Position numbers and translations under genes: made by a program. Positions 5,612 through 56,452 of a stretch of DNA of 64,000 nucleotides are shown here, one piece after another. Within the stretch, counting starts at the first letter, position 1; every line of letters begins with the position of its first letter. This DNA is from a virus. The DNA lies in the IMG/VR virus record IMGVR_UViG_3300042010_000012, positions 5,816 to 69,815 of that record, one strand, 5' to 3'. The notes beneath the pieces are model-generated. The model saw only the letters and a program-made list of their open reading frames with translations, had not been told where the DNA came from and searched no databases.

Positions 5612-6361
5612 TTAACCCATGCAAAAGTCGATTGGTTCTTCATAAGTTGAACGCAGTTCCTCATCAAGGTCATTGATTTCAGCGGTCGCCTCGTCGAAGA
5701 TTTGTTGACCGTTTACCGAAACACCACCAAGCATTTGGATTTCGCCGTGCTTTTTCATGTTCTGACCAAAGTTCTGTTTGATCAGTGCAGTCGCGTAACG
5801 CTTCAACCAGGTGTCATTCCATGCACTAGGATCATCATCAGGATTGATTTTCTTGTACACATGAAAGGTCAAGACTTCACCAACTTTAGACGACTCCATA
5901 CCACGATAGATGATCAACTTCGCCTTGTGCTTCGTAAACTCGAAACGCTCAGTAGTGTTAATCATATCGTTGACTTCTTGGAGATTGGTCATCGACATGT
6001 AATAGTTCAGCATATCCAACGGCTGAAACGGTGACATGTTCTGCATCGTGAAGTTGTAGCGATAACTGAACAGACTATCAGTACCATGTTCCTTATAGAT
6101 TGTCGACATCGGTACAATCTGGTCAACAGTCATGATGTCCGACGGCAACGTGATGTAGCCGTTTAGGATATCGTCTTCAACCAACGCGTAGCCGATCCAA
6201 GCTTTCTCAGAGCCATCATAGTGTTTACCATTCCAAGCTTGAATTGCATCATCGATGCGATCTTCGACTTGGGAGTCGGACACGTTGATGCGAATAACTG
6301 GCTTACCCAGCTTGCGCAGGCAATATTCAGCAAACTCGGCACGGGAGGTAATGTCTGCCAT
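5612..6361 (-). CDS. 13: neck protein (gp13-like)
   Basis: LRKLGKPVIRINVSDSQVEDRIDDAIQ resembles T4 gp13 [23 protein letters not shown], and the C-terminal GGVSVNGQQIFDEA region is conserved. The track start at 6376 is GTG. The ATG at 6361 overlaps the upstream stop by 1 nt (TGATG). Confidence 0.7.
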   Translation of the reverse strand: MADITSRAEFAEYCLRKLGKPVIRINVSDSQVEDRIDDAIQAWNGKHYDGSEKAWIGYALVEDDILNGYITLPSDIMTVDQIVPMSTIYKEHGTDSLFSYRYNFTMQNMSPFQPLDMLNYYMSMTNLQEVNDMINTTERFEFTKHKAKLIIYRGMESSKVGEVLTFHVYKKINPDDDPSAWNDTWLKRYATALIKQNFGQNMKKHGEIQMLGGVSVNGQQIFDEATAEINDLDEELRSTYEEPIDFCMG

Positions 6362-6939
6362 CAGAGCACCACCCACAGTGCGCCACTTTCGACAGTCACA
6401 GTGATACCAGGGCTAACCGTAGGATCAATCGACAGGGCGTTCTTGGCTGCTGGAACCGAAATGCTCAAGTCAATGTTTCTGTCAAACATGAGTACTCCAC
6501 TTGCTGAACCTGCTGTACCAGACGACATGCTGAACTGAGTCCGCAAGTCCGTGTAGGCTGTCAACTGAGTTGCGTTAGTCGTGAAGATTGCGATTGGCAA
6601 CACGTTCTTTTCAGGCACTGCATCAGACGCATGCAGTTGAAATACAGGTGCAAAGTTGTCGATCTTGTAAATGACCAGAACGCGAGTCACACTAGGCGGC
6701 ATCGTTACGACTGTGTTAGCCATAAACTCAACCACAGAACCGTTACGAACAGTACCACCGTAAACCGAGATGTCCAACCCAGAAGTATCAGCGCGGTTAT
6801 ATGTGAACGGGCCAGTGATAGCCAGTTCTGCAATATAATCGTCAAGATATTGGGCCGTGTCGGTGTGGGCCTGCACAAGTGCATTGATCTTTGTTTTCCA
6901 CTCAGCGAACGTATCGCTGAATACCAATTCACTTACCAT
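6361..6939 (-). CDS. hypothetical virion structural protein (position of wac/whisker region)
   Basis: 192 aa with no recognisable motif. Tightly coupled to gp13 (1-nt overlap) within the late block. Confidence 0.4.
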   Translation of the reverse strand: MVSELVFSDTFAEWKTKINALVQAHTDTAQYLDDYIAELAITGPFTYNRADTSGLDISVYGGTVRNGSVVEFMANTVVTMPPSVTRVLVIYKIDNFAPVFQLHASDAVPEKNVLPIAIFTTNATQLTAYTDLRTQFSMSSGTAGSASGVLMFDRNIDLSISVPAAKNALSIDPTVSPGITVTVESGALWVVL

Positions 6940-7147: not shown

Positions 7148-10100
7148 TAAGTCCCCAGCGCAAGTCCGCGCAGTCGTTTGGCCATTGGTACATTACACGA
7201 CGAATTCGATGTCATGACGATCTTGAACTGGTAGAAGCTGAACAGTGTCAGAGCGTCTTTGGCATACTGGAACTCGTTGAAAATCATCGGATCAGTCGAA
7301 GTTTTAGTCGACACTGCTGGCATTGCAGCCCAGACCTTATCGTTCACTTCCTGTTCAGTGTTACCAGTGCGGTAGAACACTAGGAAGTTAGACCCTTGTG
7401 GCTGATTCACGTCAACGAACAGCTTGAGAGCGTTCGCAGCGTTTGCCAGACCGATGACCTTAGTCAAGTATCGAGCGTAAGCGTTGCCGCCCGTAGCCGC
7501 TGTCTCAGTGACTGTAGTAGGGTTGTTGATACGGTTCACGATACCGATAATGCCTGCGCGGTTCATGTCGATAACAGGAGAGATGTTATCAACGAAAGAA
7601 ACCAAGCCTGCTGTTACAATACCTGCAGGAGCAGTTAGCAGAGAATCGTTAGCCGAGTTTGGAACAACGTGCGGTACAGCAAGCAAGTTGTTTGCGCCCG
7701 GTGTAATGTTTAGCGCAGCCGCTTGTTGGTACGGTGTTTCAGTACCGTCAGTTGACTGGCCAGTTGTACCACGATAAGTCCAAACAATCTCAGTCTGGTC
7801 GAACGTCAAGTTTTCGATGATTGGTTGCAGTGCAGCCATCGCCATGCTCTTACCTGAAGTCACAACAGCGCCACCGAACGAACCACTTGTGGTAGCGTTG
7901 GTAGTGGTCTTGAAGGTCAAGTGATCCGGATCAATTACACTGAACACAGTTTGCTGTGCGTTCAATTCACCGAGTGGGATACCAGGACCAACATCAACAC
8001 CTTCAATTACGAACTTAGAACCAACGAACATACCATGGTTAGGTATTTCAAGGGTAATAGTGTTCGAAGCAGCAGTCGACTTCATCGGGTTAGCGACCAG
8101 AGTCACACGATCCGGGTAGCCCATTTTCAAACCTGCGCTGAACACCGAATCAGTGCTGAACTTCGCAGTGTTGATCTTGAACTTCATGTCCGACAACTGA
8201 TCTTCAGACCAGGTGCTGTTGTTCTGCGACTTGAAGAGAACACCTACTGCTGGCTGTTTCGAGATTGCAACGTTGCCAACCAACGACGGACGACCCATAG
8301 TGGCGATGAACGCGTTGTAGTTGTTGCTGTTCGACATCAGAACGAAGCAGTATTCGTTGCCATCTGCCAAGTACACAGGGCTTTCCATTACGAACTTGGT
8401 GCTAACAGTGCCGTTAGTCGACACGTTCACTTGGCTTGGGTTCATCGACACAGTGCTATAAGGCACGATGTTCTTACCAGGTACACCAGCTTCCATGTCG
8501 CGAATCTGAATCGACACTGGCATTACAGTATCTTTGGTCTTGAAGAATACTTCGATGCTAGTAACAAACACACCACCAGACTTCTCAACAAAGAACGACT
8601 GCGCCAATGGGTCCCATGGTTTAACGACCGAACTAGACACTTGCGAGATGTTTGTGGTAGTCACAACAGTCTGCGACAGCAAGTTCAGAGTGCCTTTAGC
8701 GGTGTAACTTGCACCTGTGTACGACAGCGAAGTTTCGCGCACGTTGTTGGCGTTGTCGATCAGGGTGAACTGCTTGGTACCGGTACGGAAGCGCAAAGCG
8801 GTCGTATTAGGGATCAAGAAAGTGCCCGAGATGTTGCCCAAGCTGTTAACGTACATCGGTGCGCCGTAAGCTTGTACACCTTGTTTGCAGTGTGCGGTCA
8901 CGTTGACATCGTCGAAGAACGCATACACGCGACTGAACGGCATCAGACCCTGCGCAGAAAACGCAACTTCGCGTGAACGCATGTACGGGATATCTGAAGT
9001 GCCAACTTGGTTAGTGATAGTCGACGACGACGTGGTCACTACGTTCTGTGTTGTGGTCGTTGTAGACGAACCTACACGCGAGTGACGCCGAGCAGAATCG
9101 TTCGGGTTAGTTGTCGTCCAAGTGTTTGCACCGTTGTGCATGGTGTACACTACGGATGGTGCAGTACTTGACCAGTTACCCACAGTTTGGCTAACGTTGT
9201 TGCGGTCGATGATAGTGCTATCGTACCAGACGTCGCTGCTTGGGGTCAGGGTCAGTGTACCGTTCCAGCGGTAAACAGCATACGGGTTGATGTTCAGTGC
9301 ATCAGACGCAAGCAACTGCGACAGGAACACGCGCTCGGTATACGGCAGAGTGATCAACGAACCAGTCTGAACAGCACCAGTCGAGTATGCAGGATCAAGT
9401 GTCAGACCGACGAAGTCAACGCCAATACCTGGGCTCATGATGCTGCTGTCGATGTTACAGTTGAACTCGGCTACAGTCGAGTTAGCCACAGAGTAATCAG
9501 AGAACCCATCAGTCACAAAACCGTTTTTGAAGCGGTTTAGACCAGTAGACGGATCGGTGATCTGCATCGAGTTGGTTTCAGTTTCAAGCAACGACAGCGA
9601 GGTGTAGTATTCGATACTCGCAATCCGATCTTCCAACTTACCGATGTCACGCATAGTGTAACGACGGTTGTTGATGAACACAGACTGAATATCGGTAACA
9701 GACTTCGTGTAAGCAGGAACAATCAACTTGTACAGGGTCATTGTGTTATCTGGAGCGTTCGGCTCAGCGGGGTTAATCGCAGGAACACCTTTAATGACAC
9801 CGAAAGTACCTTTCGAATCGACATACACTTTGTCCACACGTGGCAGGTACTGATCCAGATCGCAACGGAACAGTGTGTACGGTGCTGGCACTTCAACGAA
9901 CGAAGCCCCTGTACCAGTGAACGCCGTCCCTGCATCGTTGAAGCGAGGGCGGAAGTCGATCATGTCGGCCATGCTAGTGGCTGAGTTGTTTGCCGCGTCT
10001 ACAGGGATGCTTGGGTAAGCCACAGTGCTGTAAGAGTCAACGTTGAAGTAATCACCTGCACCGTGCAAGTAGTATTCGAAGTCGATAACCAGGTCGTTAG

Positions 10101-15123: not shown

Positions 15124-15613
15124 ACGGTACCTCCCGGGCTGGCCAGCCCTCTTCAAGCATTGAGTCTGTGTAGGTGCCGTTCGTCAGCATGTAACCAAGA
15201 ACACCCTCACGCGTGTAACACGCTTGCACGTAGTCACCTACAGCATCAGCAACGTACAAAATAAGTTCTGCTGTCAGAGAAACGAAAGAGCCGTCAAGGG
15301 TCTTCCAATCGACTGTGTAGTTAGGATCACGCGAAGCGCGAAATGCCGCTGCTGTCAATTTGTTCTGGGTGGTGCGATCGGTGTAAACAGGGATTCCACC
15401 CACAGTCATGCCTGCTACTTCAGCCTTGTAGCGGCGATCAGCTATTGCTACCCTGCGTTTGGCTGCAATATATTCATCAGAGAACTCAGGCTGAGGTGTA
15501 TTACCTTTGGCTAGCCATACTTTGTATGCCGCCCAATCACTGTTGTGCATGTCATTGGGTATGCTCGCACCATCCGCAATACGGATGACGCCATTACCAT
15601 TAATCTTGTACAT
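15110..15613 (-). CDS. tail fibre assembly chaperone (Tfa-like)
   Basis: 167 aa. [21 protein letters not shown]...[11 protein letters not shown] with C-terminal [10 protein letters not shown]. Overlaps the downstream fibre start by 14 nt. Confidence 0.7.
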
Positions 15614-15651
15614 CGTTCTCTCCTCAGTGTGAGTAAACGTTAATATTCATG

Positions 15652-16122
15652 TTAGAACCAGCGACCCTTAGCGATAAGGTGAACATCTTTTACGTTACCC
15701 GCTGCAATTGAAAGGCTGCTCCAGATACGGTAGCTCACTGTGTTTGTTGCAACTGTACGAATAAAAAGCCCCATAACCAGCGTAGCATCGTTTCGTGCTA
15801 TATTACCAGTAACCACTGGAGTCGCTATGAACACGGCAGGGAAAGTCCAAGTTAGTTCACTACCCGCTTGGAACAATGAGCCTGTTGCTGAAGTGACTGC
15901 CTGTGAAGAGCCGTCAGCTTTGAATGAACAGTCAAGTGTTCCATCTGCATATTTGGTGTATGTTCCATTAGCATTAGAACCAGTTTCAATGATTGCCCCA
16001 GTGGGTACACTTGCAGATTGGGTTACGCTCCCGACAGCCCCAGCGCCCATGGATGTTGCACCTGTACCACCCTCGGCGATACCTAAAATATTCTTTGCTT
16101 TCAAACGTGCTTTAGATGGCAT
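15652..16122 (-). CDS. short tail-fibre-like protein with GGTGAT motif
   Basis: 156 aa. KNILGIAEGGTGATSMGAGAVGSV at the N-terminus. Followed by its own Tfa gene. Confidence 0.55.
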   Translation of the reverse strand: MPSKARLKAKNILGIAEGGTGATSMGAGAVGSVTQSASVPTGAIIETGSNANGTYTKYADGTLDCSFKADGSSQAVTSATGSLFQAGSELTWTFPAVFIATPVVTGNIARNDATLVMGLFIRTVATNTVSYRIWSSLSIAAGNVKDVHLIAKGRWF

Positions 16123-33110: not shown

Positions 33111-33139
33111 TTGACAAGGACCCGAAAGGGTCCTTTTCC
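33111..33139 (+). terminator. terminator hairpin after gene 32 with embedded TTGACA (PeSL-like element)
   Basis: TTGACA AGGACCCGAAAGGGTCC TTTTCC, then TATAAG. Same architecture as the two - strand elements at about 49850 and about 50119. Confidence 0.5.
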
Positions 33140-33158
33140 ATATAAGTGAGGAATCAAT

Positions 33159-33677
33159 ATGATCAAACACCTTCTGAGTAGACATTACGACCCGTCGCGT
33201 TACGTGCACCAGCACATCGATCATGACCAACGTATTCTGACCGTGCTACTTCACAACCTGTCAGGTCAATACGTCGGCTTTCAACAGTATCGACCAGACA
33301 TCAAAGAGAAGCGCCATAACGATCCTCGTGAATCGCGCTACTTCACATACGCACCAAGAGATACCAGCGCCCTGTGGGGCCTTGAGAGCTACGACAGCAG
33401 CAAAGCAGATATCTACGTTGTCGAAGGGATCTTCAAAGCGGCGACACTACACAGCGTGGGCCTGAACGCGCTTGCTGTCTTGACAGCGAACCCTGTGAAG
33501 ATGCAGTCATTGCTTTGGCTGTTGAGTCATAGTCACAATGTCATTGCGATCGGTGACAACGATGCAGCAGGGGCGCAACTGGTCAAGCTGGTAGGTCGAG
33601 GTTTTCAGAGTGATGATCTTGACGAAATGCCACTGGAGGACGTTTACCAATTAATCCAAACAAAACGCTTGACATGA
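33159..33677 (+). CDS. Toprim-domain protein
   Basis: IYVVEGIFKAATL...VIAIGDNDAAG carries the E...DxD Toprim motif. Confidence 0.45.
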   Translation: MIKHLLSRHYDPSRYVHQHIDHDQRILTVLLHNLSGQYVGFQQYRPDIKEKRHNDPRESRYFTYAPRDTSALWGLESYDSSKADIYVVEGIFKAATLHSVGLNALAVLTANPVKMQSLLWLLSHSHNVIAIGDNDAAGAQLVKLVGRGFQSDDLDEMPLEDVYQLIQTKRLT

Positions 33678-33736
33678 TGGTAGGTAACGTCCATAATCAA
33701 CTCATCGAAACAAACAACGTGAAGAAGGACGACATC

Positions 33737-33982
33737 ATGAACAAGCAAGCACTCAACACAGCTCAACTCAAAAAGTTCATGGACGGCTACAACAAAAAGG
33801 TGGCTACCGTGACTGCTGGTGAAAGTGACAAAGGCGGCTCTCCATTTCGTCGTGCTACTTGGTCTTCGTTGGGTTACGAATACGCCCGCAGTGAGGTCGT
33901 TCGTCAACAGGTTGCAGGTCAGAATGTTGTTCTCAAAATGCTCGATGCAACTGAAGCACAAGCGGTCTGGTTGAAAGGTTAA
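33737..33982 (+). CDS. hypothetical protein
   Basis: ATG at 33737 with RBS GAAGGA; the track ORF begins earlier at 33674. Confidence 0.4.
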   Translation: MNKQALNTAQLKKFMDGYNKKVATVTAGESDKGGSPFRRATWSSLGYEYARSEVVRQQVAGQNVVLKMLDATEAQAVWLKG

Positions 33983-45732: not shown

Positions 45733-46815
45733 TCAATCGCCCTGTTTGATCAAATAACGGTTCGAAATTGCCTTGAACTGCCAGTTGCGAGTCAACGACT
45801 TGAACACCAAGCCCTCGCGAAACTTACCTTTCAAACCACTGTCACCATCGGCCAGAGCCAAGATTTCGGCCATAGTAGGAGGCAACATCATGCGCACGCT
45901 GAACGTAGGGACCATCTGCAAGTCAAGATCATCACAGACATGCCTTGCCTCACCAGGCAACATGTACTGCTGAGCATCGATGTCAAACACGTTGTAGACG
46001 TACAGCTCAACGTCATCCAAGCCTTCGAAGTTTGACTGGATACCAGGTCCAACCATCTCACCTTGAAGTGCAATGTTACGACCAGTCACGGCATGATAGG
46101 TGCGCAGTTTGTCGTCAAGGTTGTATTTGTTGAAGGTCTTGACAAAGAGGTTTTCCTCATTGCCTTCAAACTTCAGCTCCAGGTTACGCGAGCAAACGCC
46201 AGTGACAACAACATCCTCAGCATTTTTCTTGACATAGCCTGTGAAGCTGCTACCATCAAGCTTGTAGGTAACGTTGAACTCTTCCTGAGAGTCAACAGCG
46301 TCTTGATACTGACGCTTGAGGTTCTGCACCCGTTCCTGATCGGACTTGCGGATGAACTGCGGGAAGTTGCCTTTGGCCAACCCTGCAAGATTCGCATTGA
46401 CTGGGCGTTCCCATTTCAGGATGCCCAGGGTTTCAGTCAGGTCAGTTTCTGTGCCTACCAACAGGTCATCGGCCAACTGAACAGCGATAGCATCACCGTT
46501 AGGCAACTCTTTCACAGGGATCAACAAGCCTTGACTGATCTCACCGCGCAGTTTGATGGTGCGCAGACGCTCACCTTTGACGCCTTCGTAGACCTTCGGC
46601 TCTTTGTCTTTCGACAGGAACGGTGCGATCTCATGTGGAATCCAGCTGTCAACTTCGAAGTAACAGGCAATATCACCAGTCACATACAAACCTTTCTGAG
46701 CAACTACACGCCAGCCACCGATTGTGGCGATGTCAAGGGCATCAGCGTTTGGGTGTGCAATTACTTCATCCAGCACAACCAAACGCGCTAGTTTACGTTC
46801 ACTCATTTCTTTCAA
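45733..46815 (-). CDS. ATP-dependent RNA ligase with N-terminal tRNA-binding (Trbp111/EMAP-like) OB domain
   Basis: N-terminus VLDEVIAHPNADALDIATIGGWRVVAQKGLYVTGDIACYF matches the tRNA-binding domain signature (HPNADKL...QIVSG...PGD). Ligase motif I YKLDGSS (KxDG), motif IV EGLVFK, motif V FKAISNRYLIK. Confidence 0.6.
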   Translation of the reverse strand: MKEMSERKLARLVVLDEVIAHPNADALDIATIGGWRVVAQKGLYVTGDIACYFEVDSWIPHEIAPFLSKDKEPKVYEGVKGERLRTIKLRGEISQGLLIPVKELPNGDAIAVQLADDLLVGTETDLTETLGILKWERPVNANLAGLAKGNFPQFIRKSDQERVQNLKRQYQDAVDSQEEFNVTYKLDGSSFTGYVKKNAEDVVVTGVCSRNLELKFEGNEENLFVKTFNKYNLDDKLRTYHAVTGRNIALQGEMVGPGIQSNFEGLDDVELYVYNVFDIDAQQYMLPGEARHVCDDLDLQMVPTFSVRMMLPPTMAEILALADGDSGLKGKFREGLVFKSLTRNWQFKAISNRYLIKQGD

Positions 46816-47636
46816 TCCTTCAGGTCAGGGTGTTTGTGTTTGTTGTCAAGCATGAGTTCGATTTCACGCGCTTTGTAACTGATTTCTTCTTTGGAGAAGG
46901 TCGACTCACGGTAATCGTGATAGCGCTGCCATGCACGCATCATTTCATACATCGGTGTGTTGTAGTCAATCTCAGATATGCCAACCCCAAGCGACTTTGC
47001 TACAGCCAAGCGAACACCGAGGGCTGATAGATTGACACCTTCGAGATCCTCGCTGTAGAGTTTCGGATCGATCAACGCACCGACAGCACACATGCAACCA
47101 TCAGAGGTGCGATACTGACACGAACCGTGTTCACCGGCTGCTTGCTTGCCTTGCTTGAGCAAGTGGTCAGCAATATAGCCTGAAACTTGTTTGATATGAC
47201 GCTTGGTGATTTCACCGGTCATGTCGTACCGTTCGCGAGTTTTCAGGTGCTCATGCATTGTCGATGGAGAGTCTGGACTACCGGCGTCTGCACCTTCTTG
47301 AATCCAACGCCCGTAATTAATGCGGAATACAGGTTCACCGTCTTCGTACTGCGCGTATGCGGAATCGTGGTAGTTCTGCCAAGCTTTCAACAATGCGAGT
47401 GTGTCCACATCGAGCTTCATTTTCAGCGACAAGCCAACGGCGGTGATGATCTCTTCGCGCCCCATAGCCTTGCCTTCAAGTTCAGGGCTGTAGACTTCAT
47501 CGGGGATCAAACAACCGACGGCACACATGTTACCGTTGATGTTGCGATACTTACATGTACCATTGTTAGTTTCGCTTTTCGCCTTCTGTTTGATCAGATG
47601 GTCACGGATCTTTTCGGAGATTTGCAGGAGAGTCAT
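46812..47636 (-). CDS. tandem-duplicated Cys-containing domain protein (two copies of a ~130-aa module)
   Basis: Internal repeat L.Q.SEKIRDHLIKQ...G.C.YR...G.MCAVG.LI...Y.P.LEG...AWQ.YHD occurs twice. Confidence 0.5.
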   Translation of the reverse strand: MTLLQISEKIRDHLIKQKAKSETNNGTCKYRNINGNMCAVGCLIPDEVYSPELEGKAMGREEIITAVGLSLKMKLDVDTLALLKAWQNYHDSAYAQYEDGEPVFRINYGRWIQEGADAGSPDSPSTMHEHLKTRERYDMTGEITKRHIKQVSGYIADHLLKQGKQAAGEHGSCQYRTSDGCMCAVGALIDPKLYSEDLEGVNLSALGVRLAVAKSLGVGISEIDYNTPMYEMMRAWQRYHDYRESTFSKEEISYKAREIELMLDNKHKHPDLKD

Positions 47637-48037
47637 ACGGTCAGTTCCTTGAGAATCATATCGTGGAAGTGGGTAGGGCTGTTTGGCTCATCGCTCGGCT
47701 TATTAACCCAGTCAGTGTAGCGATAGGTTTTAGTCGACAGCACGTCGCAACTTTCATAAAACGAATCGTGATACGACTGCCATGCGCGAAACAGTTGAGA
47801 CGCTGTTTCATCAACCAACACGCCAGACAGTTTGAGCGCATCAGTGATAGACGGGTCGTCTGCCATCTTACCTTCAAGGTCAGGGTCATATGCATCATCA
47901 TTGATGAGGCAACCGACTGCACACATCAAGCCTGCCTCACTGCGGTATTTGCAACTACCATGATCGCTTACGCTTTTGCTACGTTGTTTGATCAGATGGT
48001 CACGGATTGTTTCGGACAACTGTACAAGAGTTTTCAT
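47633..48037 (-). CDS. paralogue of the same Cys-containing domain (single copy)
   Basis: LVQLSETIRDHLIKQRSKSVSDHGSCKYRSEAGLMCAVGCLIND...FRAWQSYHDS. Coupled by ATGA to the upstream gene. Confidence 0.5.
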   Translation of the reverse strand: MKTLVQLSETIRDHLIKQRSKSVSDHGSCKYRSEAGLMCAVGCLINDDAYDPDLEGKMADDPSITDALKLSGVLVDETASQLFRAWQSYHDSFYESCDVLSTKTYRYTDWVNKPSDEPNSPTHFHDMILKELTV

Positions 48038-49564: not shown

Positions 49565-49819
49565 TTACAGTCCTAATGAGGTTTTGAGAAGTTGGATTGC
49601 CACGAGGTTATCTTGCTCAAGTGCTGAGCCTTTATACCCGTCGTATTCATCGTACATCGTGTGATGTTGGTGGTTCGCTTCGATACACATCAAAGCATTC
49701 GCAAACACCCGAAGGCTCAGAGCGCGGGCTTTGATTTGGTAGTCATACTCGATGTGCGAAACAGTTTTGCGATTTTCGAGGTCAACCAAAGGCTTTTTGT
49801 GTTCGGCGTAAAGTGACAT
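49565..49819 (-). CDS. hypothetical protein
   Basis: Start at the ATG at 49819 (RBS GAGGGG), downstream of a PeSL-like promoter. The track ORF extends to 49918 through the promoter. Confidence 0.45.
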   Translation of the reverse strand: MSLYAEHKKPLVDLENRKTVSHIEYDYQIKARALSLRVFANALMCIEANHQHHTMYDEYDGYKGSALEQDNLVAIQLLKTSLGL

Positions 49820-49849
49820 GATGATCCCCTCTTCACATTTATTCCGTGC

Positions 49850-49878
49850 ATAGTAAAGGGGCCGAAGCCCCTTGTCAA
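49850..49878 (-). promoter_or_regulatory. sigma70-like early promoter with hairpin spacer (PeSL-like): TTGACA-AGGGGCTTCGGCCCCTT-TACTAT
   Basis: On the - strand, TTGACA, a 17-nt GC-rich palindromic spacer (GGGGC TTCG GCCCC), then TACTAT. The ATG at 49819 lies about 25 nt downstream. Confidence 0.45.
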
Positions 49879-49892
49879 AGGATTTGTTGGAC

Positions 49893-50078
49893 TTAGAAGT
49901 CGTCAGCGAGGTCAGCAACAGCAGTCACAAGACCATCGAAGTCTTCATTAGGACCGTAGACGTTGGCGAGTACAAACACAGCATCTTCATCAACGCCGTT
50001 TTCTTCAGCGAGCGAACGCAGATAGTGGGCACGAGATTTGTAGCCATTATCAGCGTAGACGTTCTGTGCGATGTTCAT
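49893..50078 (-). CDS. hypothetical protein (61 aa)
   Basis: Strong RBS AGGAG 7 nt before the ATG at 50078. Downstream of the second PeSL-like promoter. Confidence 0.45.
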   Translation of the reverse strand: MNIAQNVYADNGYKSRAHYLRSLAEENGVDEDAVFVLANVYGPNEDFDGLVTAVADLADDF

Positions 50079-50118
50079 GATGTAACTCCTGCTTCACGTT
50101 GTTTGTTTTGATGTGTCC

Positions 50119-50146
50119 ATGGTAAAGGGCCCGAAGGCCCTTGTCA
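50119..50146 (-). promoter_or_regulatory. second PeSL-like promoter: TTGACA-AGGGCCTTCGGGCCCTT-TACCAT
   Basis: Near-identical copy of the element at 49850 on the - strand. Hairpin GGGCC TTCG GGCCC in the spacer. Confidence 0.45.
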
Positions 50147-50163
50147 AGCATTTTGTGTGAGGA

Positions 50164-51102
50164 TTATTCTTCGATGTAGCTGAAGCTTTCGCACACATGG
50201 TTCGGGATCAGTTGACGATGCTGAATCCAGCCTTTGAAGTTACCTGAATGGAAGACACCTTTGCGATCCATGTGAGTGATACCCTCCTGCCATTCGGTCA
50301 AATGCTCATATGCACTATCACCCAAGCGCGGTTTCTCGATTGGAGTACCCTGGTGCTCGAACGGGCTAGCGTGTACTTTATCGGCCCCTACAAGACGATC
50401 ATAGAGCCCTACAGCTTTCTCAAGGCTGTCATCACTCTTACGATACGACACTTGGGCACAACATGACGAACTGATCTTCAGGGCTTCAGCCAGGGTGTAC
50501 TCATGAACATCTGTACCGCTACCTTCAAGGAACTCGCTCCAGTAGCCGTCGAAGTAGAACGGAACGTGCCACTCACCAGGTAGCAATAGACGCGGCGAAC
50601 TTTCGTTGTATGCAGCAAGCATCACGTTAGCCAGGACTTTGATGGTCGGATCAGCCATCTCGCAATGACGCAACCAGAACCAGTTGTCATATGAAGTCGA
50701 AGTCACAACCACTTTGATGTTCTGGGCGAACTCAGTACCACGGTTGGCGACTTGCTTGTGATAACCCGCTTCAGCAAAACCTTCACTGAACTTGGCAGCG
50801 CTCAGTGCCATCAGCTTCCACCATTCTTGAGGTGTGTAGCCGTTGATCAGTTCGAAGTGTTCACCAGCGTCCTGCATACCAGTCTGGTTCTTACCGAAGT
50901 GAACAGGCATTGCAGGGTCGTTCATGACACGATCAAGCACAGCCTTTGTAGGGATAGCGCGTGAACTTGCGGCATTACGCGAGAACTCACGGTGAGTCAT
51001 CAGCTCGGCGTGAACGATGCGCGGATAGTCGAGGACGAAGGTCGTAATACGGACACCATCTTCATTAATGGAGTCAGCAATGATTTCAGCAGTAACGGTC
51101 AT
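50164..51102 (-). CDS. thyX: flavin-dependent thymidylate synthase ThyX
   Basis: ELMTHREFSRNAASSRAIP matches the ThyX motif RHR..S...S.R. 312 aa. Confidence 0.8.
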   Translation of the reverse strand: MTVTAEIIADSINEDGVRITTFVLDYPRIVHAELMTHREFSRNAASSRAIPTKAVLDRVMNDPAMPVHFGKNQTGMQDAGEHFELINGYTPQEWWKLMALSAAKFSEGFAEAGYHKQVANRGTEFAQNIKVVVTSTSYDNWFWLRHCEMADPTIKVLANVMLAAYNESSPRLLLPGEWHVPFYFDGYWSEFLEGSGTDVHEYTLAEALKISSSCCAQVSYRKSDDSLEKAVGLYDRLVGADKVHASPFEHQGTPIEKPRLGDSAYEHLTEWQEGITHMDRKGVFHSGNFKGWIQHRQLIPNHVCESFSYIEE

Positions 51103-51275
51103 ACAGGTTCCTTAGGATTAGTGTGGGTCAGACATGCGACGTCGAAATTGACAATTCGAATATCGTTTAGGTCATCCACGTATGAGCATGTTGCCTTGAC
51201 GCCTACAAGTTTCTCAACAGTCATTTCAGGACTACCACTGTTCAAGAAAACGACGTCACCTTGTTTGATTGTCAT
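51099..51275 (-). CDS. DUF2158 (YodC-like) small protein
   Basis: MTIKQGDVVFLNSGSPEMTV matches the GDvV.LKSGGP.MTV signature. ATGA overlap with thyX. Below the track cutoff. Confidence 0.45.
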   Translation of the reverse strand: MTIKQGDVVFLNSGSPEMTVEKLVGVKATCSYVDDLNDIRIVNFDVACLTHTNPKEPV

Positions 51276-52398: not shown

Positions 52399-52459
52399 AC
52401 TTCACTCCTAATAATATATAAGCCCAACGCAATAGTGCGTCAGGCTATTATACATGTGA

Positions 52460-53548
52460 TTAGAAGTCAGTATCAAGCTCAGTTTCATCAACGTTCATAT
52501 CAACTTGGCCGGTTTGATACTGAAGGATAGTGTCTTCCTGTGGTGCAGGTTGATCATCATCACCAGTTTCATTCAGGAACTTGCGCATCCAAGGGATAGG
52601 CTCTTTAACCGGAACGGTGAAGTTTGGCTCAACACCATTACGGCGCATGCACTTACCTACATGGTATTGCAAGTAAACGATCAGCTCTTGTTCAGTCAGA
52701 CCGACAATCGGGCCTTTGCTGAACAGATACTTGATCCACTCAAGTTCTTGACGATAGACAGCATACAGGATTGCTTCGGCATCAGCCTGACATTCAATCG
52801 CGATCTTCGCCATATCAGGGTCTTCTTTCGGACTCTGACGCAGGACAAACTGAGTGAAACCACAGTGGAACGCTTCGTCTTGACGGATCAGTGTAACGAT
52901 CTCACCAGAACCCTTCATCTTACCACGGTTGGCAAACGAGAAGGTGCAAGCGAAACTTACATGGAACCGAATCTGCTCAAGGGCGTTGACTGCAACCATG
53001 CACAGGTAGAACGCTTTCTTGGTGCGATAGTCGCCGTAGTCGTATTCTTTGATGCACCGCAGGAGTTCGTCATAGTACTTGCTGATGTCGTCAGAACACT
53101 CGGCGATCTCACGGATCTCCTTCATCGTGTCATAGATTTCAGAGGCGTTGGCGTAGACGTTCTCAATGATATGCGTGTAGCTGCTCGAATGGATGCCCTC
53201 GTAGAAGTTCCATGCGTTGATGAATGCCTCTGCCCATGAGTCAGACACAATCGGCAAGAAACACAGTGCAGGGGCACGGCCTTGAACGCTGTCGAGGATG
53301 ATTTGACGCTTCAGGTTCGATGAGAAAACATGCTTCTCAGCTTCGGTGAAGTCGTTGTAGTCAATCTTGTCTTGAGACATGTTGACTTCAGTTGGTCGCC
53401 AGTAGTTGGCCAACTGGTTTTCAGTCAGACGTTTAACCATCGGATACTTGACGACGTCATAGCGCTGAATGTCAACAGTGCCAGCCTCATCGAAAAACAT
53501 CTTAGGCTTGTAAGTACCGTTTACATCACGGAAGTATAGAACAGACAT
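52460..53548 (-). CDS. nrdB: ribonucleotide reductase beta subunit NrdB
   Basis: 362 aa class Ia R2 with conserved iron-ligand E/H motifs. Adjacent to nrdA. Confidence 0.85.
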   Translation of the reverse strand: MSVLYFRDVNGTYKPKMFFDEAGTVDIQRYDVVKYPMVKRLTENQLANYWRPTEVNMSQDKIDYNDFTEAEKHVFSSNLKRQIILDSVQGRAPALCFLPIVSDSWAEAFINAWNFYEGIHSSSYTHIIENVYANASEIYDTMKEIREIAECSDDISKYYDELLRCIKEYDYGDYRTKKAFYLCMVAVNALEQIRFHVSFACTFSFANRGKMKGSGEIVTLIRQDEAFHCGFTQFVLRQSPKEDPDMAKIAIECQADAEAILYAVYRQELEWIKYLFSKGPIVGLTEQELIVYLQYHVGKCMRRNGVEPNFTVPVKEPIPWMRKFLNETGDDDQPAPQEDTILQYQTGQVDMNVDETELDTDF

Positions 53549-53593
53549 TGAAACTCCTAGAAAGGCCGAGTGTTACCTCGGCCATGTTTGATG

Positions 53594-55882
53594 TTAGATT
53601 ACACAGGACGGGCAGGACGCTTCGTCTTCTTGCTCAACTACTTCTGGCACAGCACAATCAAGCGCAAGACTCTTCTCCTCTTCGGTCTTGATCATCTTAC
53701 GGTTGTTGTGGTAGTAGCCAGTTTTCCCGCCGAGTTTATAGATCAATGTCATGTCATTCAGAATCACGGTCGCCGGTACCTTGTTGTCAGGGTACTTAGT
53801 GTTGTCGTAGCGAGTGTTCAGCGAGATAGCCTGATCCATACGCTTCTGCATAATGCAGGAGATTTTGATGTAACCGTGAAGATTAACGTCCCACTCAAGT
53901 TGGTACTTGTGCTTCAGGCGATCATACTCAGGCACAACAAACTTAGTACCAGACTTAGCAACGATCAGGTTGCGAACAGGCTCTTGACCATTAGTCATGT
54001 TCTGCACACGCGAAGACGTTTCAGACGGCATGTTGCACATCAAGGTCGCGTTACGAATGCCCGATACCTTCATGCGCGCACGCAACGGCTCCCACGGCAT
54101 ACGCTCAACATGAGGAATAACTTCATCAATGCCTTTCTTGCGCACGTCTTGAGGGAAGATGCCCTGAGCGTATTTGGTGTTTTCAACTTTACCGCATGCA
54201 CCGTACAGTTCAGCAAGTTCAACCGACGCTTGAGTCAGATAGAACGCCATCGCTTCCATGTATTCATCGACAACTTCAAACGCACCTTCATCGAACTTCA
54301 GACCACGTTTAGCCAGGAAGTAAGCGAGGTTGTTTACGCCGATGCCCAGAGGACGATACCAGTCAGTGCTGTTTTTCGCAGCGGGCAGCAAGTATGGCTG
54401 ATAGTCAAGCAAGGCGTCAAGTGCGAACACAGCAAGACGGCAAGGAACTTCGAAGTCAGACGGCTTCTTGATTGCACCCCAGTTGATTGCACTCAGGTTG
54501 CACAGACTGATCAGCGCGTTCATGTCCTCAAGACTCATCAGTTCGATGGTCGGCAGTGTCACTTCAGTGCACAGGTTCGACATGCGAATAGGTGCGTTCT
54601 TAGCAACAAAACTACCCTGTTCGTTCGAGTTGTCGACGAAGTGGAAGTAAACACGCGAGGTCGAAGAACGCTCGGTAGCGATCATGTCACGCAGTTTGCT
54701 ACCTTCGATGATACGACGGGTTTTGGTTTCGTCTTTCTCATACAGCTCATACAGACGCGCAAACTCAACTTGGTCATCGCAGAACGCCTTCTGAAGCAGT
54801 GGAACTTCCTCAGGGGAGAACAGGGTGACGGCTTCGCGCTTGAGAATACGTTTCCACAGATAACCGTTCAGGTTGAATGCGTGGTCAGCGTGACGAATGC
54901 GTGTTTCTTCAGTGCCTTTGTTGTTCTTCAGTACCAGCAGCTTCTCAACATCCAAGTGCCAGATGTTGTGGTAGTAAGTCTCGCTACCCTTACGCATGCC
55001 GCCCTGACTAGAAGCCCCTACAATCGCTCGTGACGCTTGAGCAAAGCCAATCACGCCAGTAGTCGTCACGTCACCGTTACGAACAGGCTGCCCCTCAGCA
55101 CGCAGGTTAAACACGCCAAGACCGATGCCTGCCTTGTTAGTCGCATACTTCAGCACTGCTTGATAGGTCGCACCAATCGAGTCAATCGAATCGCCCATTT
55201 CAATCAGGGTGCAGCTTGCGCCTTGTGGGTTCGGTGTACGAATCGATGCAGCGATCGGACTCGGGATACTGATACCCGCTTCAGACAGCTGGTTGTAGTA
55301 GCCTTTGACCATCGTGATGCCGAAGCGATCAACGTACTTGCGCATCAGAACAGCGGCTACCAGGATGTAGGCCACTTGAGGCGTTTCGTGGTAGACCTTC
55401 TGCTTACGATTCTGCACCAAATACTTGTCAAGCCACTCACGCGCACCCGAGATACGGAAGTTAAAGTCGTTGTCATGCTTGACAAACGATTCAATCTTGG
55501 CCCACTGCTCAGGCGTGTACATGTTCAACAGGTCTTTGTGATACCAACCCGACTTGACGTTCTTTTCAACGATCCCGTACAGCGAAGGAACTTCGAACTG
55601 TCCATAGACTTCTTTGCGCAGTGCCAGCATGACCAGACGACCAGCGACCAGGTCATAGTTCGGATAATCTGGCGAGATGAGTTCGTGTGCTGAGTCGATC
55701 AGCGAGGTATGCAAGTCAGACGTTTTCATGCCGTCATGAAACTTCAGTCCAGCCTGTGCTTCGATCTCAGAAGGTGAAACGTTGCTTACGCCGTCACATG
55801 CCCATACTAATACCTTGTGAATCTTGTTGATGTCCAACAGTTCGCGTGAACCGTTTCTTTTAATCAGAAAAATATCTTTCAT
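53594..55882 (-). CDS. nrdA: ribonucleotide reductase alpha subunit NrdA
   Basis: 762 aa. N-terminal ATP cone (KRNGSRELLDINKI). Catalytic NLCTEV. The + ORF 53570..55033 is a shadow. Confidence 0.9.
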   Translation of the reverse strand: MKDIFLIKRNGSRELLDINKIHKVLVWACDGVSNVSPSEIEAQAGLKFHDGMKTSDLHTSLIDSAHELISPDYPNYDLVAGRLVMLALRKEVYGQFEVPSLYGIVEKNVKSGWYHKDLLNMYTPEQWAKIESFVKHDNDFNFRISGAREWLDKYLVQNRKQKVYHETPQVAYILVAAVLMRKYVDRFGITMVKGYYNQLSEAGISIPSPIAASIRTPNPQGASCTLIEMGDSIDSIGATYQAVLKYATNKAGIGLGVFNLRAEGQPVRNGDVTTTGVIGFAQASRAIVGASSQGGMRKGSETYYHNIWHLDVEKLLVLKNNKGTEETRIRHADHAFNLNGYLWKRILKREAVTLFSPEEVPLLQKAFCDDQVEFARLYELYEKDETKTRRIIEGSKLRDMIATERSSTSRVYFHFVDNSNEQGSFVAKNAPIRMSNLCTEVTLPTIELMSLEDMNALISLCNLSAINWGAIKKPSDFEVPCRLAVFALDALLDYQPYLLPAAKNSTDWYRPLGIGVNNLAYFLAKRGLKFDEGAFEVVDEYMEAMAFYLTQASVELAELYGACGKVENTKYAQGIFPQDVRKKGIDEVIPHVERMPWEPLRARMKVSGIRNATLMCNMPSETSSRVQNMTNGQEPVRNLIVAKSGTKFVVPEYDRLKHKYQLEWDVNLHGYIKISCIMQKRMDQAISLNTRYDNTKYPDNKVPATVILNDMTLIYKLGGKTGYYHNNRKMIKTEEEKSLALDCAVPEVVEQEDEASCPSCVI

Positions 55883-55897
55883 GGGTTGAACTACACC

Positions 55898-56452
55898 TTA
55901 GTTGTTTGGATTGTTAATAAAGTAATCGCACATTGCATAGGCATCCGTGATGTCGGCTAGTGGGCTTTTGTCGGACGCACAGTTTAGCAGCTTCTCTAAG
56001 TCAACGTCTAAGCCTTTGTTTAGAAAGGCATCGTACATCGCAGTCTTGTTTGAATTACCTTTGCCAGTGAACAGTTTCTTCACCGCAGTCGGCGCAGGAG
56101 TGATGAAAGCAATGCCTTCTTTCCACATTTTATGTTTCAACAGACCGATGTTCTCAGCGATATTGAACACTCGACCACTAGCGCCCATTGCATAACCTTC
56201 AAGACAAGCTTCTTTCACACCATGTCTCTTGAGGATAGTAATCGCCCATGACGCGATGTTGTCATAGCGTTCTTCATCACTGTGGTGCAACGTTGCTTTA
56301 AAGCCGTGAATATTACCGTAGGACTGGTCGTACTTCTTACTGTCAATGTAGAAGTAGAAGGTGCAGTTTTTGAATTCAAGTGGGGTCTTTGTATCGTGAA
56401 TGCAGATTGCTGGACATGACATCGACCAGTCGAGGCCGGCGATCATAGTCAT
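55898..56452 (-). CDS. RuvC-fold nuclease (putative Holliday-junction resolvase-like)
   Basis: IAGLDWSMSCPAICI (D), CLEGYAMG (E) and ADITDAYAMCDYF (D..DA.A) are the RuvC-like catalytic motifs. Confidence 0.45.
   Translation of the reverse strand: MTMIAGLDWSMSCPAICIHDTKTPLEFKNCTFYFYIDSKKYDQSYGNIHGFKATLHHSDEERYDNIASWAITILKRHGVKEACLEGYAMGASGRVFNIAENIGLLKHKMWKEGIAFITPAPTAVKKLFTGKGNSNKTAMYDAFLNKGLDVDLEKLLNCASDKSPLADITDAYAMCDYFINNPNN

Follow-up and report, generated by a model that had tools for sequence, protein, structure and literature searches.

Two compact cassettes on the minus strand flank a small open reading frame (ORF) in a 64,000-nt stretch of viral DNA (positions 5,816 to 69,815 of the IMG/VR record IMGVR_UViG_3300042010_000012, hereafter called the window). 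In each cassette, a GC-rich hairpin fills the spacer between the -35 and -10 hexamers of a putative sigma70-type promoter. The cassettes are located between the nrdA-nrdB-grx-thyX block and the RNA ligase gene, where a run of about ten small ORFs begins. We consider it probable that each of them is a composite unit, in which a terminator or attenuator hairpin is nested in a promoter, and which doubles as a patch of homology for the exchange of ORFs. Judged by their sequence, the two cassettes are a further example of the already described promoter-early stem-loop (PeSL) cassettes, of the commonest class. A preliminary description of the window had proposed this match and counted three copies of one architecture. 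Both minus-strand copies are exact, whereas the plus-strand copy downstream of gene 32 lacks a properly spaced -10 hexamer and is not a promoter cassette. The match to PeSLs holds for anatomy, position, and association with ORF turnover, but the density of the elements is far lower.

Cassette 1 (TTGACA-AGGGCCTTCGGGCCCTT-TACCAT, 50147-50119, minus strand) has its -35 hexamer 16 nt from the thyX stop codon, and cassette 2 (TTGACA-AGGGGCTTCGGCCCCTT-TACTAT, 49878-49850, minus strand) is positioned 14 nt past the stop codon of the ORFan F7. The two form direct repeats 269 bp apart, with F7 in between. Their hexamers agree with the sigma70 consensus at ten of twelve positions, with A2 and T6 present, and the predicted RNA folding energy of each hairpin is -12.7 kcal/mol. 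Standard sigma70 geometry puts the predicted transcription starts near 50112-50114 for cassette 1 and 49843-49845 for cassette 2. The distance from the -10 hexamer to the ATG is 40 nt in cassette 1, which precedes F7, and 30 nt in cassette 2, which precedes F8, in place of the 25-35 nt given earlier. The expectation that small novel ORFs with strong ribosome-binding sites follow the elements was borne out, since both leaders contain good Shine-Dalgarno sequences (GGAG and AGGGG) and neither F7 nor F8 belongs to a Pfam or PHROG family. The 20 nt upstream of the cassettes contain about 65-67% A+T, mostly A (CACACAAAATGC, CCAACAAATCCT), in comparison to about 52% A+T in the window, the GC content of which is about 0.48. 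This flank is far less AT-rich than its counterpart in coliphages with 35-40% GC.

Based on this anatomy, the function of the cassettes may be envisaged as follows. A terminator-type RNA hairpin, c(UUCG)g, would occupy the 17-bp spacer of a host sigma70-type promoter. Incoming transcripts, from the nrd-grx-thyX block at cassette 1 and from F7 at cassette 2, would fold the hairpin 14-16 nt past the stop codon. The folded hairpin would terminate or attenuate the incoming transcript, or at least provide it with a stable 3' end. RNA polymerase would re-initiate about 7 nt past the -10 hexamer, presumably early in infection, and produce a leader of 24-34 nt with a strong Shine-Dalgarno sequence followed by the next ORFan. 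The transcription of an individual ORFan would thus be insulated and restarted within about 30 bp. Recombination at the homology patch formed by the cassette may swap, insert, or delete the ORFs downstream. We propose this role at gene boundaries because the unit is near-identical at several loci and across genomes.

The cassettes exceed chance expectation. The pattern TTGACA-N17-TAYNAT occurs three times in the window, against 0.11 expected. Two promoter-like sites have a stem of 7 bp or more in the spacer, whereas the mean number was 0.04 over 200 dinucleotide shuffles, none of which reached two. The exact cassette pattern is confined to pf16-like viral and metagenomic contigs, and its lack of any match in 185,579 bacterial and archaeal genomes rules out a bacterial origin as a host promoter or a repetitive extragenic palindromic (REP)-type repeat. 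The Rfam search returned no hits at gathering thresholds for the whole window and none at E<=1 for positions 49700-50250, which indicates that no curated RNA family represents the hairpins. A transposon or a miniature inverted-repeat transposable element was also rejected, given that neither target-site duplications nor a transposase are present, and that the copies occupy orthologous positions in relatives. A middle promoter of T4 with a MotA box does not fit, as the TGCTT of cassette 1, within 'ATGCTTGACA', is about 19 nt from the -10 hexamer instead of 11-13 nt, and cassette 2 has no TGCTT. Hairpin promoters of the N4 type require the virion RNA polymerase and 3-nt loops; the cassettes instead have consensus sigma70 hexamers flanking the hairpin.

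Conservation of the cassettes was assessed in an alignment of twelve copies from three loci. The -35 hexamer is invariant, the -10 hexamer is invariant except for one C/T position, and the stem is invariant except for one base pair. Both hexamers and the 17-nt spacing are retained in all twelve copies, even as identity in the flanking genes falls to 75-85%. The variable pair is split evenly, with C:G and G:C in six copies each, and it differs between lineages even at the orthologous thyX site. Pairing of the stem positions is complete in 12/12 copies, a value reached by none of 500 shuffles. The loops are UUCG, or UACG in more distant relatives (still of the UNCG type), and GAAA, of the GNRA type, in the gene-32 element; the tetraloop reading holds on the sense strand only. 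The strand-specific tetraloops point to selection at the level of RNA. Of 12 related genomes, 11 have a cassette with a spacer hairpin behind thyX. The exception is Pseudomonas phage pf16, in which a separate terminator and, 9 nt further on, a sigma70 promoter occupy this site, and which has one nested cassette one gene downstream of it. Cassette 2 is limited to the subclade of the window.

The hairpin of the cassettes is of the terminator type and may terminate transcription. Its core, AAGGGCCTTCGGGCCCTT, is located just 3' of stop codons in RB69, Aeh1, Muldoon, and MHG19, where no promoter hexamers accompany it; in Aeh1, the identical hairpin after the stop codon has a fuller T-run. The short BLAST matches of the cassette to RB69, Aeh1, and other phages reflect this shared terminator hairpin only. 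Rho-independent terminators of T4-like phages are built on AAGGGCC-TTCG-GGCCCTT, the core of which is identical to the cassette hairpin, and follow directly after stop codons. They differ from the cassettes in that TTGACA and TAnnnT are absent at promoter spacing, whereas in the window the -10 hexamer occupies the position of the U-tract. We read the hexamers as a promoter because sibling elements without a hairpin keep the flanks, hexamers, 17-nt spacing, and leader.

We interpret the plus-strand element downstream of gene 32 as a terminator, or as a degraded 'half' cassette at most, rather than a conserved promoter. It is positioned 15 nt beyond the stop codon of a gene that encodes a true gp32 (Pfam PF08804, E=5.9e-34). 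No -10 hexamer is found at 16-18 nt; the closest similar sequence, TTCCAT, is 19 nt away and does not have the critical A2, and the promoter scan passes over the element. From TTCCAT it is 3-4 nt to the beginning of the Shine-Dalgarno sequence that serves the following gene. In relatives with gp32 88-92% identical, the hairpin is kept and TTGACA has changed to AAGACA or ACGACA. The idea that this copy doubles as the gene-32 terminator is therefore right as to the terminator-type hairpin after gp32, whereas the promoter half, with its decaying TTGACA and silent scan, could not be upheld.

The similarity between the cassettes extends beyond the hexamers. The repeat unit comprises the A-rich flank, -35, spacer, -10, and a leader (..CAAACAACGYGAAG-AGGAG-N6-CATCATG); it measures about 60-85 bp from the A-rich flank to the ATG, with a core of about 30 bp. 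The leader of cassette 1 and positions 33700-33729 form a 30-nt, 90% inverted repeat, and an exact 17-mer of the leader occurs twice in the window. The hairpin-less sibling at 33669 has the upstream flank and the leader up to CATCATGAAC in common with cassette 1. At a third locus, which is outside the window and known from several relatives, the leader and hairpin of cassette 1 are found downstream of a homologue of pf16 gp71. The same promoter-leader precedes at least five unrelated ORFs at three loci, with near-identity over 45-60 nt, and the leader AACGCGAAGCAGGAACTTTATCATG is followed by fam12 in one genome and by fam6 in a second. A generic leader motif does not account for this repeat. 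The pattern GTGAAG-NN-GG-N9-ATG is at chance level in the window, with one match against 1.17 expected; ACATCATG is enriched (12 against 4.2 expected), yet most of its sites are not gene starts near cassettes.

The hairpin-less promoter-leaders constitute a family, GC-TTGACA-N17-CATAAT-..CATCGAAACAAACAACGTGAAGAAGGA..CATCATGAAC, represented in the window at 33669-33739 on the plus strand and at about 33980. In L090, the gp32 of which is 97% identical, positions 5850-6420 contain an extra promoter and two ORFs, about 570 bp that are absent from the window; the left breakpoint is within the -35 hexamer, between GGTT and GACA. In pf16, 28-nt features annotated as 'putative phage specific promoter' (for example, 9038-9065, and many others) frequently adjoin start codons and coincide in part with the GTGAAG...AGGA...CATCATG leader. 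Their appearance is that of a conserved leader and ribosome-binding motif rather than of promoters.

ORF content next to the cassettes was mapped in twelve genomes, and changes at junctions were counted in eleven relatives. The comparison of flanking ORFs among related phages had been put forward as a check on the idea of ORF shuffling, and its outcome did not refute it: five different ORFs are found behind the thyX cassette, and F8 exists as three alleles or is absent. Pfam has no families for fam6, fam12, fam20, or the extra ORFs of L010 and L119. The clearest junction is at cassette 2. Overall identity between the window and L009 is 94%, and that of the flanking genes is 99-100%, whereas the amino-acid identity of F8 is 69% and that of F9 is 52%. 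The identity between these near-identical genomes collapses from GTGAAG at the 3' end of cassette 2 and recovers at the F9/F14 junction. Four genomes are identical in the leader of cassette 2 through GTGAAG and diverge beyond it. L120 (ThyX 93% identical) has no F8, and its cassette 2 is joined straight to F9; the junction shows an ATCATG microhomology, and in the window ATCATG is found at each end. In L007, the sequence breaks just past GTGAA, and the ORF downstream of cassette 1 has its 5' part replaced or extended by 240 nt. At the third locus, ORF A is present in L003 and L005 and missing in L116, with the junction at CATCATG.

Several observations weigh against a composite cassette that promotes ORF exchange. 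The window contains two full cassettes, one half copy, and one hairpin-less sibling in 64 kb, which do not include the early region of this phage, and the 158-kb genome of pf16 contains two strict cassettes and five further promoter-plus-stem-loop composites among 34 promoter-like sites; this copy number is low. Behind the stem there is a short U-tract (UUUACYAU), curtailed because the -10 hexamer sits in its place, and neither cassette is called by the consensus terminator scan; termination may therefore be weak or partial. The single co-varying pair could result from gene conversion between two copies instead of independent compensatory change. Most of the junctions without a cassette have also changed, in 3-6 of the 11 relatives. 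Indels occur without cassettes as well: a 171-bp insertion at 51104-51274 and the losses of F20 and F28. The insertion carries a 58-aa DUF2158 ORF (51099-51275, minus strand) between a gp49/66-like gene and thyX, the start and stop codons of which overlap the neighboring genes (ATGA), with no cassette or repeat at the junctions. It is precise and absent from the near-identical L009, L120, L010, and L007, whereas L122 has a DUF2158 ORF at this place. Finally, turnover at hairpin-less promoters is like that at the cassettes, which shows that the stem-loop itself is not needed for shuffling.

It is conceivable, although we regard it as rather unlikely, that the cassettes are genuine terminator-plus-promoter units that are bystanders in genome plasticity, because the interval from thyX to the RNA ligase gene is hyperplastic throughout. 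Breakpoints would then seem to fall at the cassettes because, among fast-evolving ORFans, no DNA is conserved other than that under functional constraint. In the interval, more than half of the junctions that lack a cassette vary among the eleven relatives, the DUF2158, F20, and F28 indels did not involve a cassette, and some junctions use 6-7 nt of start-codon microhomology (ATCATG, CATCATG) and not the cassette core, all of which agrees with this possibility. However, bystanders would not explain the reuse of one near-identical promoter-leader in front of unrelated ORFs at three loci, or the collapse of identity with L009 exactly at a cassette edge. Each of the two cassette junctions has changed in seven of eleven relatives, in comparison to typically about four of eleven elsewhere, although two junctions are too few for statistics, and they are the most variable junctions apart from the DUF2158 indel. 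We favor a part for the composite cassettes in the exchange of ORFs, in which recombination may be guided by their homology.

Three further explanations concern the cassettes themselves, and we consider all of them improbable. The first is that the spacer repeat is a DNA operator for a dimeric repressor of the phage or host, and not an RNA terminator. The region between -35 and -10 is the classic position of an operator, and the dyad symmetry of the cassettes is placed exactly there; the weak U-tract and the silence of the terminator scan would fit as well. The loops, however, are strand-specific UNCG or GNRA tetraloops, and the stem pair changes on both sides together, so that pairing is kept rather than base identity. 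The element is always 12-16 nt past a stop codon, the same hairpin is a plain terminator in other T4-like phages, and the spacers of the sibling promoters are unrelated and non-palindromic. The second explanation, to which we likewise give little credence, is that the cassettes may serve T4-related phages as recombination sites in a gene-cassette system like that of integrons. The hairpin, extruded or single-stranded, would be the substrate of a structure-specific nuclease or recombinase of the phage, and units of promoter plus ORFan, such as a 269-bp circle containing F7, would be excised and re-inserted at other cassettes. If so, the exchange of ORFans would be site-specific and not a by-product of general homologous recombination. 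The third and least credible explanation is that the cassettes are ordinary intrinsic terminators with fortuitous or relic TTGACA and TACYAT: the gene-32 copy does have TTGACA beside a hairpin without a usable -10 and the pf16 copy was annotated as a terminator only, but the hexamers and their spacing are invariant among copies with diverging flanking genes, TTGACA decays next to the gene-32 hairpin, a place that requires no promoter, the hairpin-less siblings share hexamers, flank, and leader with the cassettes, and the number expected by chance is 0.04.

PeSLs were described by Arbiol et al. 2010 (PMC2839356) as promoters with sigma70 consensus and an AT-rich upstream region, which have a stable polyG/polyC stem-loop, mostly between -35 and -10. 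They are positioned past a stop codon and ahead of an ORFan with its Shine-Dalgarno sequence and ATG, at sites of indels or replacements. For the PeSLs of RB49 and phi1, promoter activity, terminator activity, and the formation of mini-circles were shown experimentally (PMC2839356). The window cassettes resemble them in the arrangement TTGACA-N17-TAnnnT with a GC-rich stem-loop between the hexamers, in their placement between the stop codon of one gene and an ORFan that begins with a Shine-Dalgarno sequence and start codon downstream, in the conservation of about 60-100 bp, and in their location at the boundaries of insertions, deletions, and replacements between close relatives. They differ in number, since RB49 and phi1 have about 50 PeSLs per genome (PMC2839356), against 2 in the 64-kb window and 2 strict plus 5 broader ones in pf16. 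They also differ in their occurrence in a pf16-related clade with about 48% GC, in their conserved UNCG tetraloop, in being known here from sequence alone, and in having hairpin-less sibling promoters with the same ORF turnover.

In the PeSLs of T4/PST and KVP40/nt-1, the stem-loop is located just upstream of a promoter that has a different consensus (Comeau et al. 2014, PMC4122927). These elements, like those in the window, combine a terminator and a promoter at the boundaries of ORFans in hyperplastic regions. Their arrangement resembles the split terminator and promoter after thyX in pf16, unlike the nested cassettes of the window. 'Half' or degraded PeSLs, which retain the -35 hexamer and stem-loop without a -10 (PMC4122927), are resembled by the gene-32 copy. 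The closest annotated counterpart of the cassettes is at positions 113273-113312 of pf16 (KU873925), where the same cassette, TTGACA-AAGGGCCTTCGGGCCCTT-TACTAT, is followed by the GTGAAG leader in the same neighborhood. It differs in an 18-nt spacer, an 8-bp stem, and its annotation solely as a terminator. The authors of the pf16 study used ARNold and annotated the copy as a Rho-independent terminator (Magill et al. 2017, PMC5587285). The terms stem-loop, hairpin, and PeSL are absent from that paper, and no composite elements are described in it (PMC5587285).

Other composites were observed in pf16 and beyond. A 48-nt terminator-plus-promoter block, AAAAGAAAAAGGCGCTTCGGCGCCTTTTTTGTGTTTYAGTGCTTGACAC, is present at two pf16 loci 95 kb apart (18996 and 113667) and represents a second class of composite, in which the stem-loop is upstream of the -35 hexamer. 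At the pf16 sites 25688 and 22792, the stems enclose the -35. Unrelated phage contigs, the ThyX of which is only 50% identical (L023 2076, L044 1707, L046 2688, and L015 2380), contain sigma70-like promoters with a spacer stem of 6-7 bp, for example TTGACA-CCGGGGGCGAAAGCCCCCA-TACTCT, which suggests that the nested arrangement may extend beyond T4-like phages.

The cassettes extend PeSL-type composite elements to the pf16-related branch of T4-like phages, in which they had previously been annotated only as terminators. They also provide nucleotide-level examples, from twelve natural genomes, of ORFans swapped, inserted, and lost directly behind a conserved expression cassette. The joints at the leader and start-codon end, together with the like behavior of the hairpin-less siblings, suggest that the promoter-leader, and not the stem-loop, may be the recombination substrate. 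Elements of this kind should be marked as bifunctional in annotations, and with a core of about 30 bp they are compact candidate insulator-plus-promoter parts for engineering.

The window evidently originates from an uncultured, T4-related relative of pf16. Its ThyX is 75% identical to pf16 gp176 and about 53% identical to annotated phage thymidylate synthases (tblastn). A megablast search of the region against 50,697 phage records gave no match, and the kinship is visible in protein searches only. Closer uncultured relatives, with ThyX 76-99% identical, were found in IMG/VR, ENA, and Logan assemblies. The features of the window discussed here are listed in Table 1.

Table 1. Positions of the cassettes and associated features in the window, and the ORFs that follow the cassettes in different genomes.
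Feature	Position	Strand	Remark
Cassette 1, -35 TTGACA	50142..50147	-	invariant in all aligned copies
Cassette 1, hairpin AAGGGCC-UUCG-GGCCCUU	50125..50142	-	perfect 7-bp stem filling the 17-nt spacer
Cassette 1, -10 TACCAT	50119..50124	-	17-nt spacing
Cassette 1, leader (..CAAAACAAACAACGTGAAGCAGGAGTTACATC)	50079..50118	-	Shine-Dalgarno GGAG
Cassette 2, -35 TTGACA	49873..49878	-	
Cassette 2, hairpin AAGGGGC-UUCG-GCCCCUU	49856..49873	-	perfect 7-bp stem in the 17-nt spacer
Cassette 2, -10 TACTAT	49850..49855	-	17-nt spacing
Cassette 2, leader (GCACGGAATAAATGTGAAGAGGGGATCATC)	49820..49849	-	
thyX (flavin-dependent thymidylate synthase)	50164..51102	-	transcript would end at cassette 1
F7, 61-aa ORFan between the two cassettes	49893..50078	-	no Pfam/PHROG family; in relatives, other ORFs stand before it or in its place
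F8, 84-aa ORFan directly 3' of cassette 2	49565..49819	-	no Pfam/PHROG family; variable or absent in relatives
Mosaic patch relative to L009	49382..49859	-	identity minimum 0.57; from cassette 2 3' end to F9/F14 junction
Element downstream of gene 32: TTGACA, 8-bp stem with GAAA loop (33116-33135), TTCCAT	33111..33141	+	
Hairpin-less sibling of cassette 1, TTGACA-N17-CATAAT	33669..33739	+	unstructured spacer
thyX cassette, next ORF by genome			F7 (fam2), fam6, fam12, fam20, or fam6-F7 fusion
Cassette 2, next ORF by genome			F8, or F9 directly
pf16 nested cassette, next ORF			F9 homologue

Further differences in gene content were observed around the cassettes. When positions 1-5053 of L007 were compared with 52400-55900 of the window, no homologues of nrdB and nrdA were detectable upstream of the F3 gene in L007, which carries other ORFs of 245 and 68 aa in their place; this would be a replacement of a large part of the nucleotide-metabolism block. 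L010 has an extra 266-aa ORF (MRNCYTYLVGWSAHDKWYYG...) at 15205-16005, just past the RNA ligase gene, which is not present in the window. Pfam gave no hit for it, and its N-terminal part may resemble that of GIY-YIG homing endonucleases. Two tandem paralogous ORFs of the window (46812-47636 and 47633-48037, minus strand), encoding 274 and 134 aa, have a repeated N-terminus, MKTLVQLSETIRDHLIKQ and MTLLQISEKIRDHLIKQ, which corresponds to the direct repeat D2; relatives differ in the number and size of these ORFs. The gene 3' of the gp32 terminator (33159-33677, plus strand) encodes a 172-aa Toprim-only protein, which matches residues 150-337 of a 435-position DNA primase PHROG profile. This partial match suggests that the protein may be a split or truncated primase.

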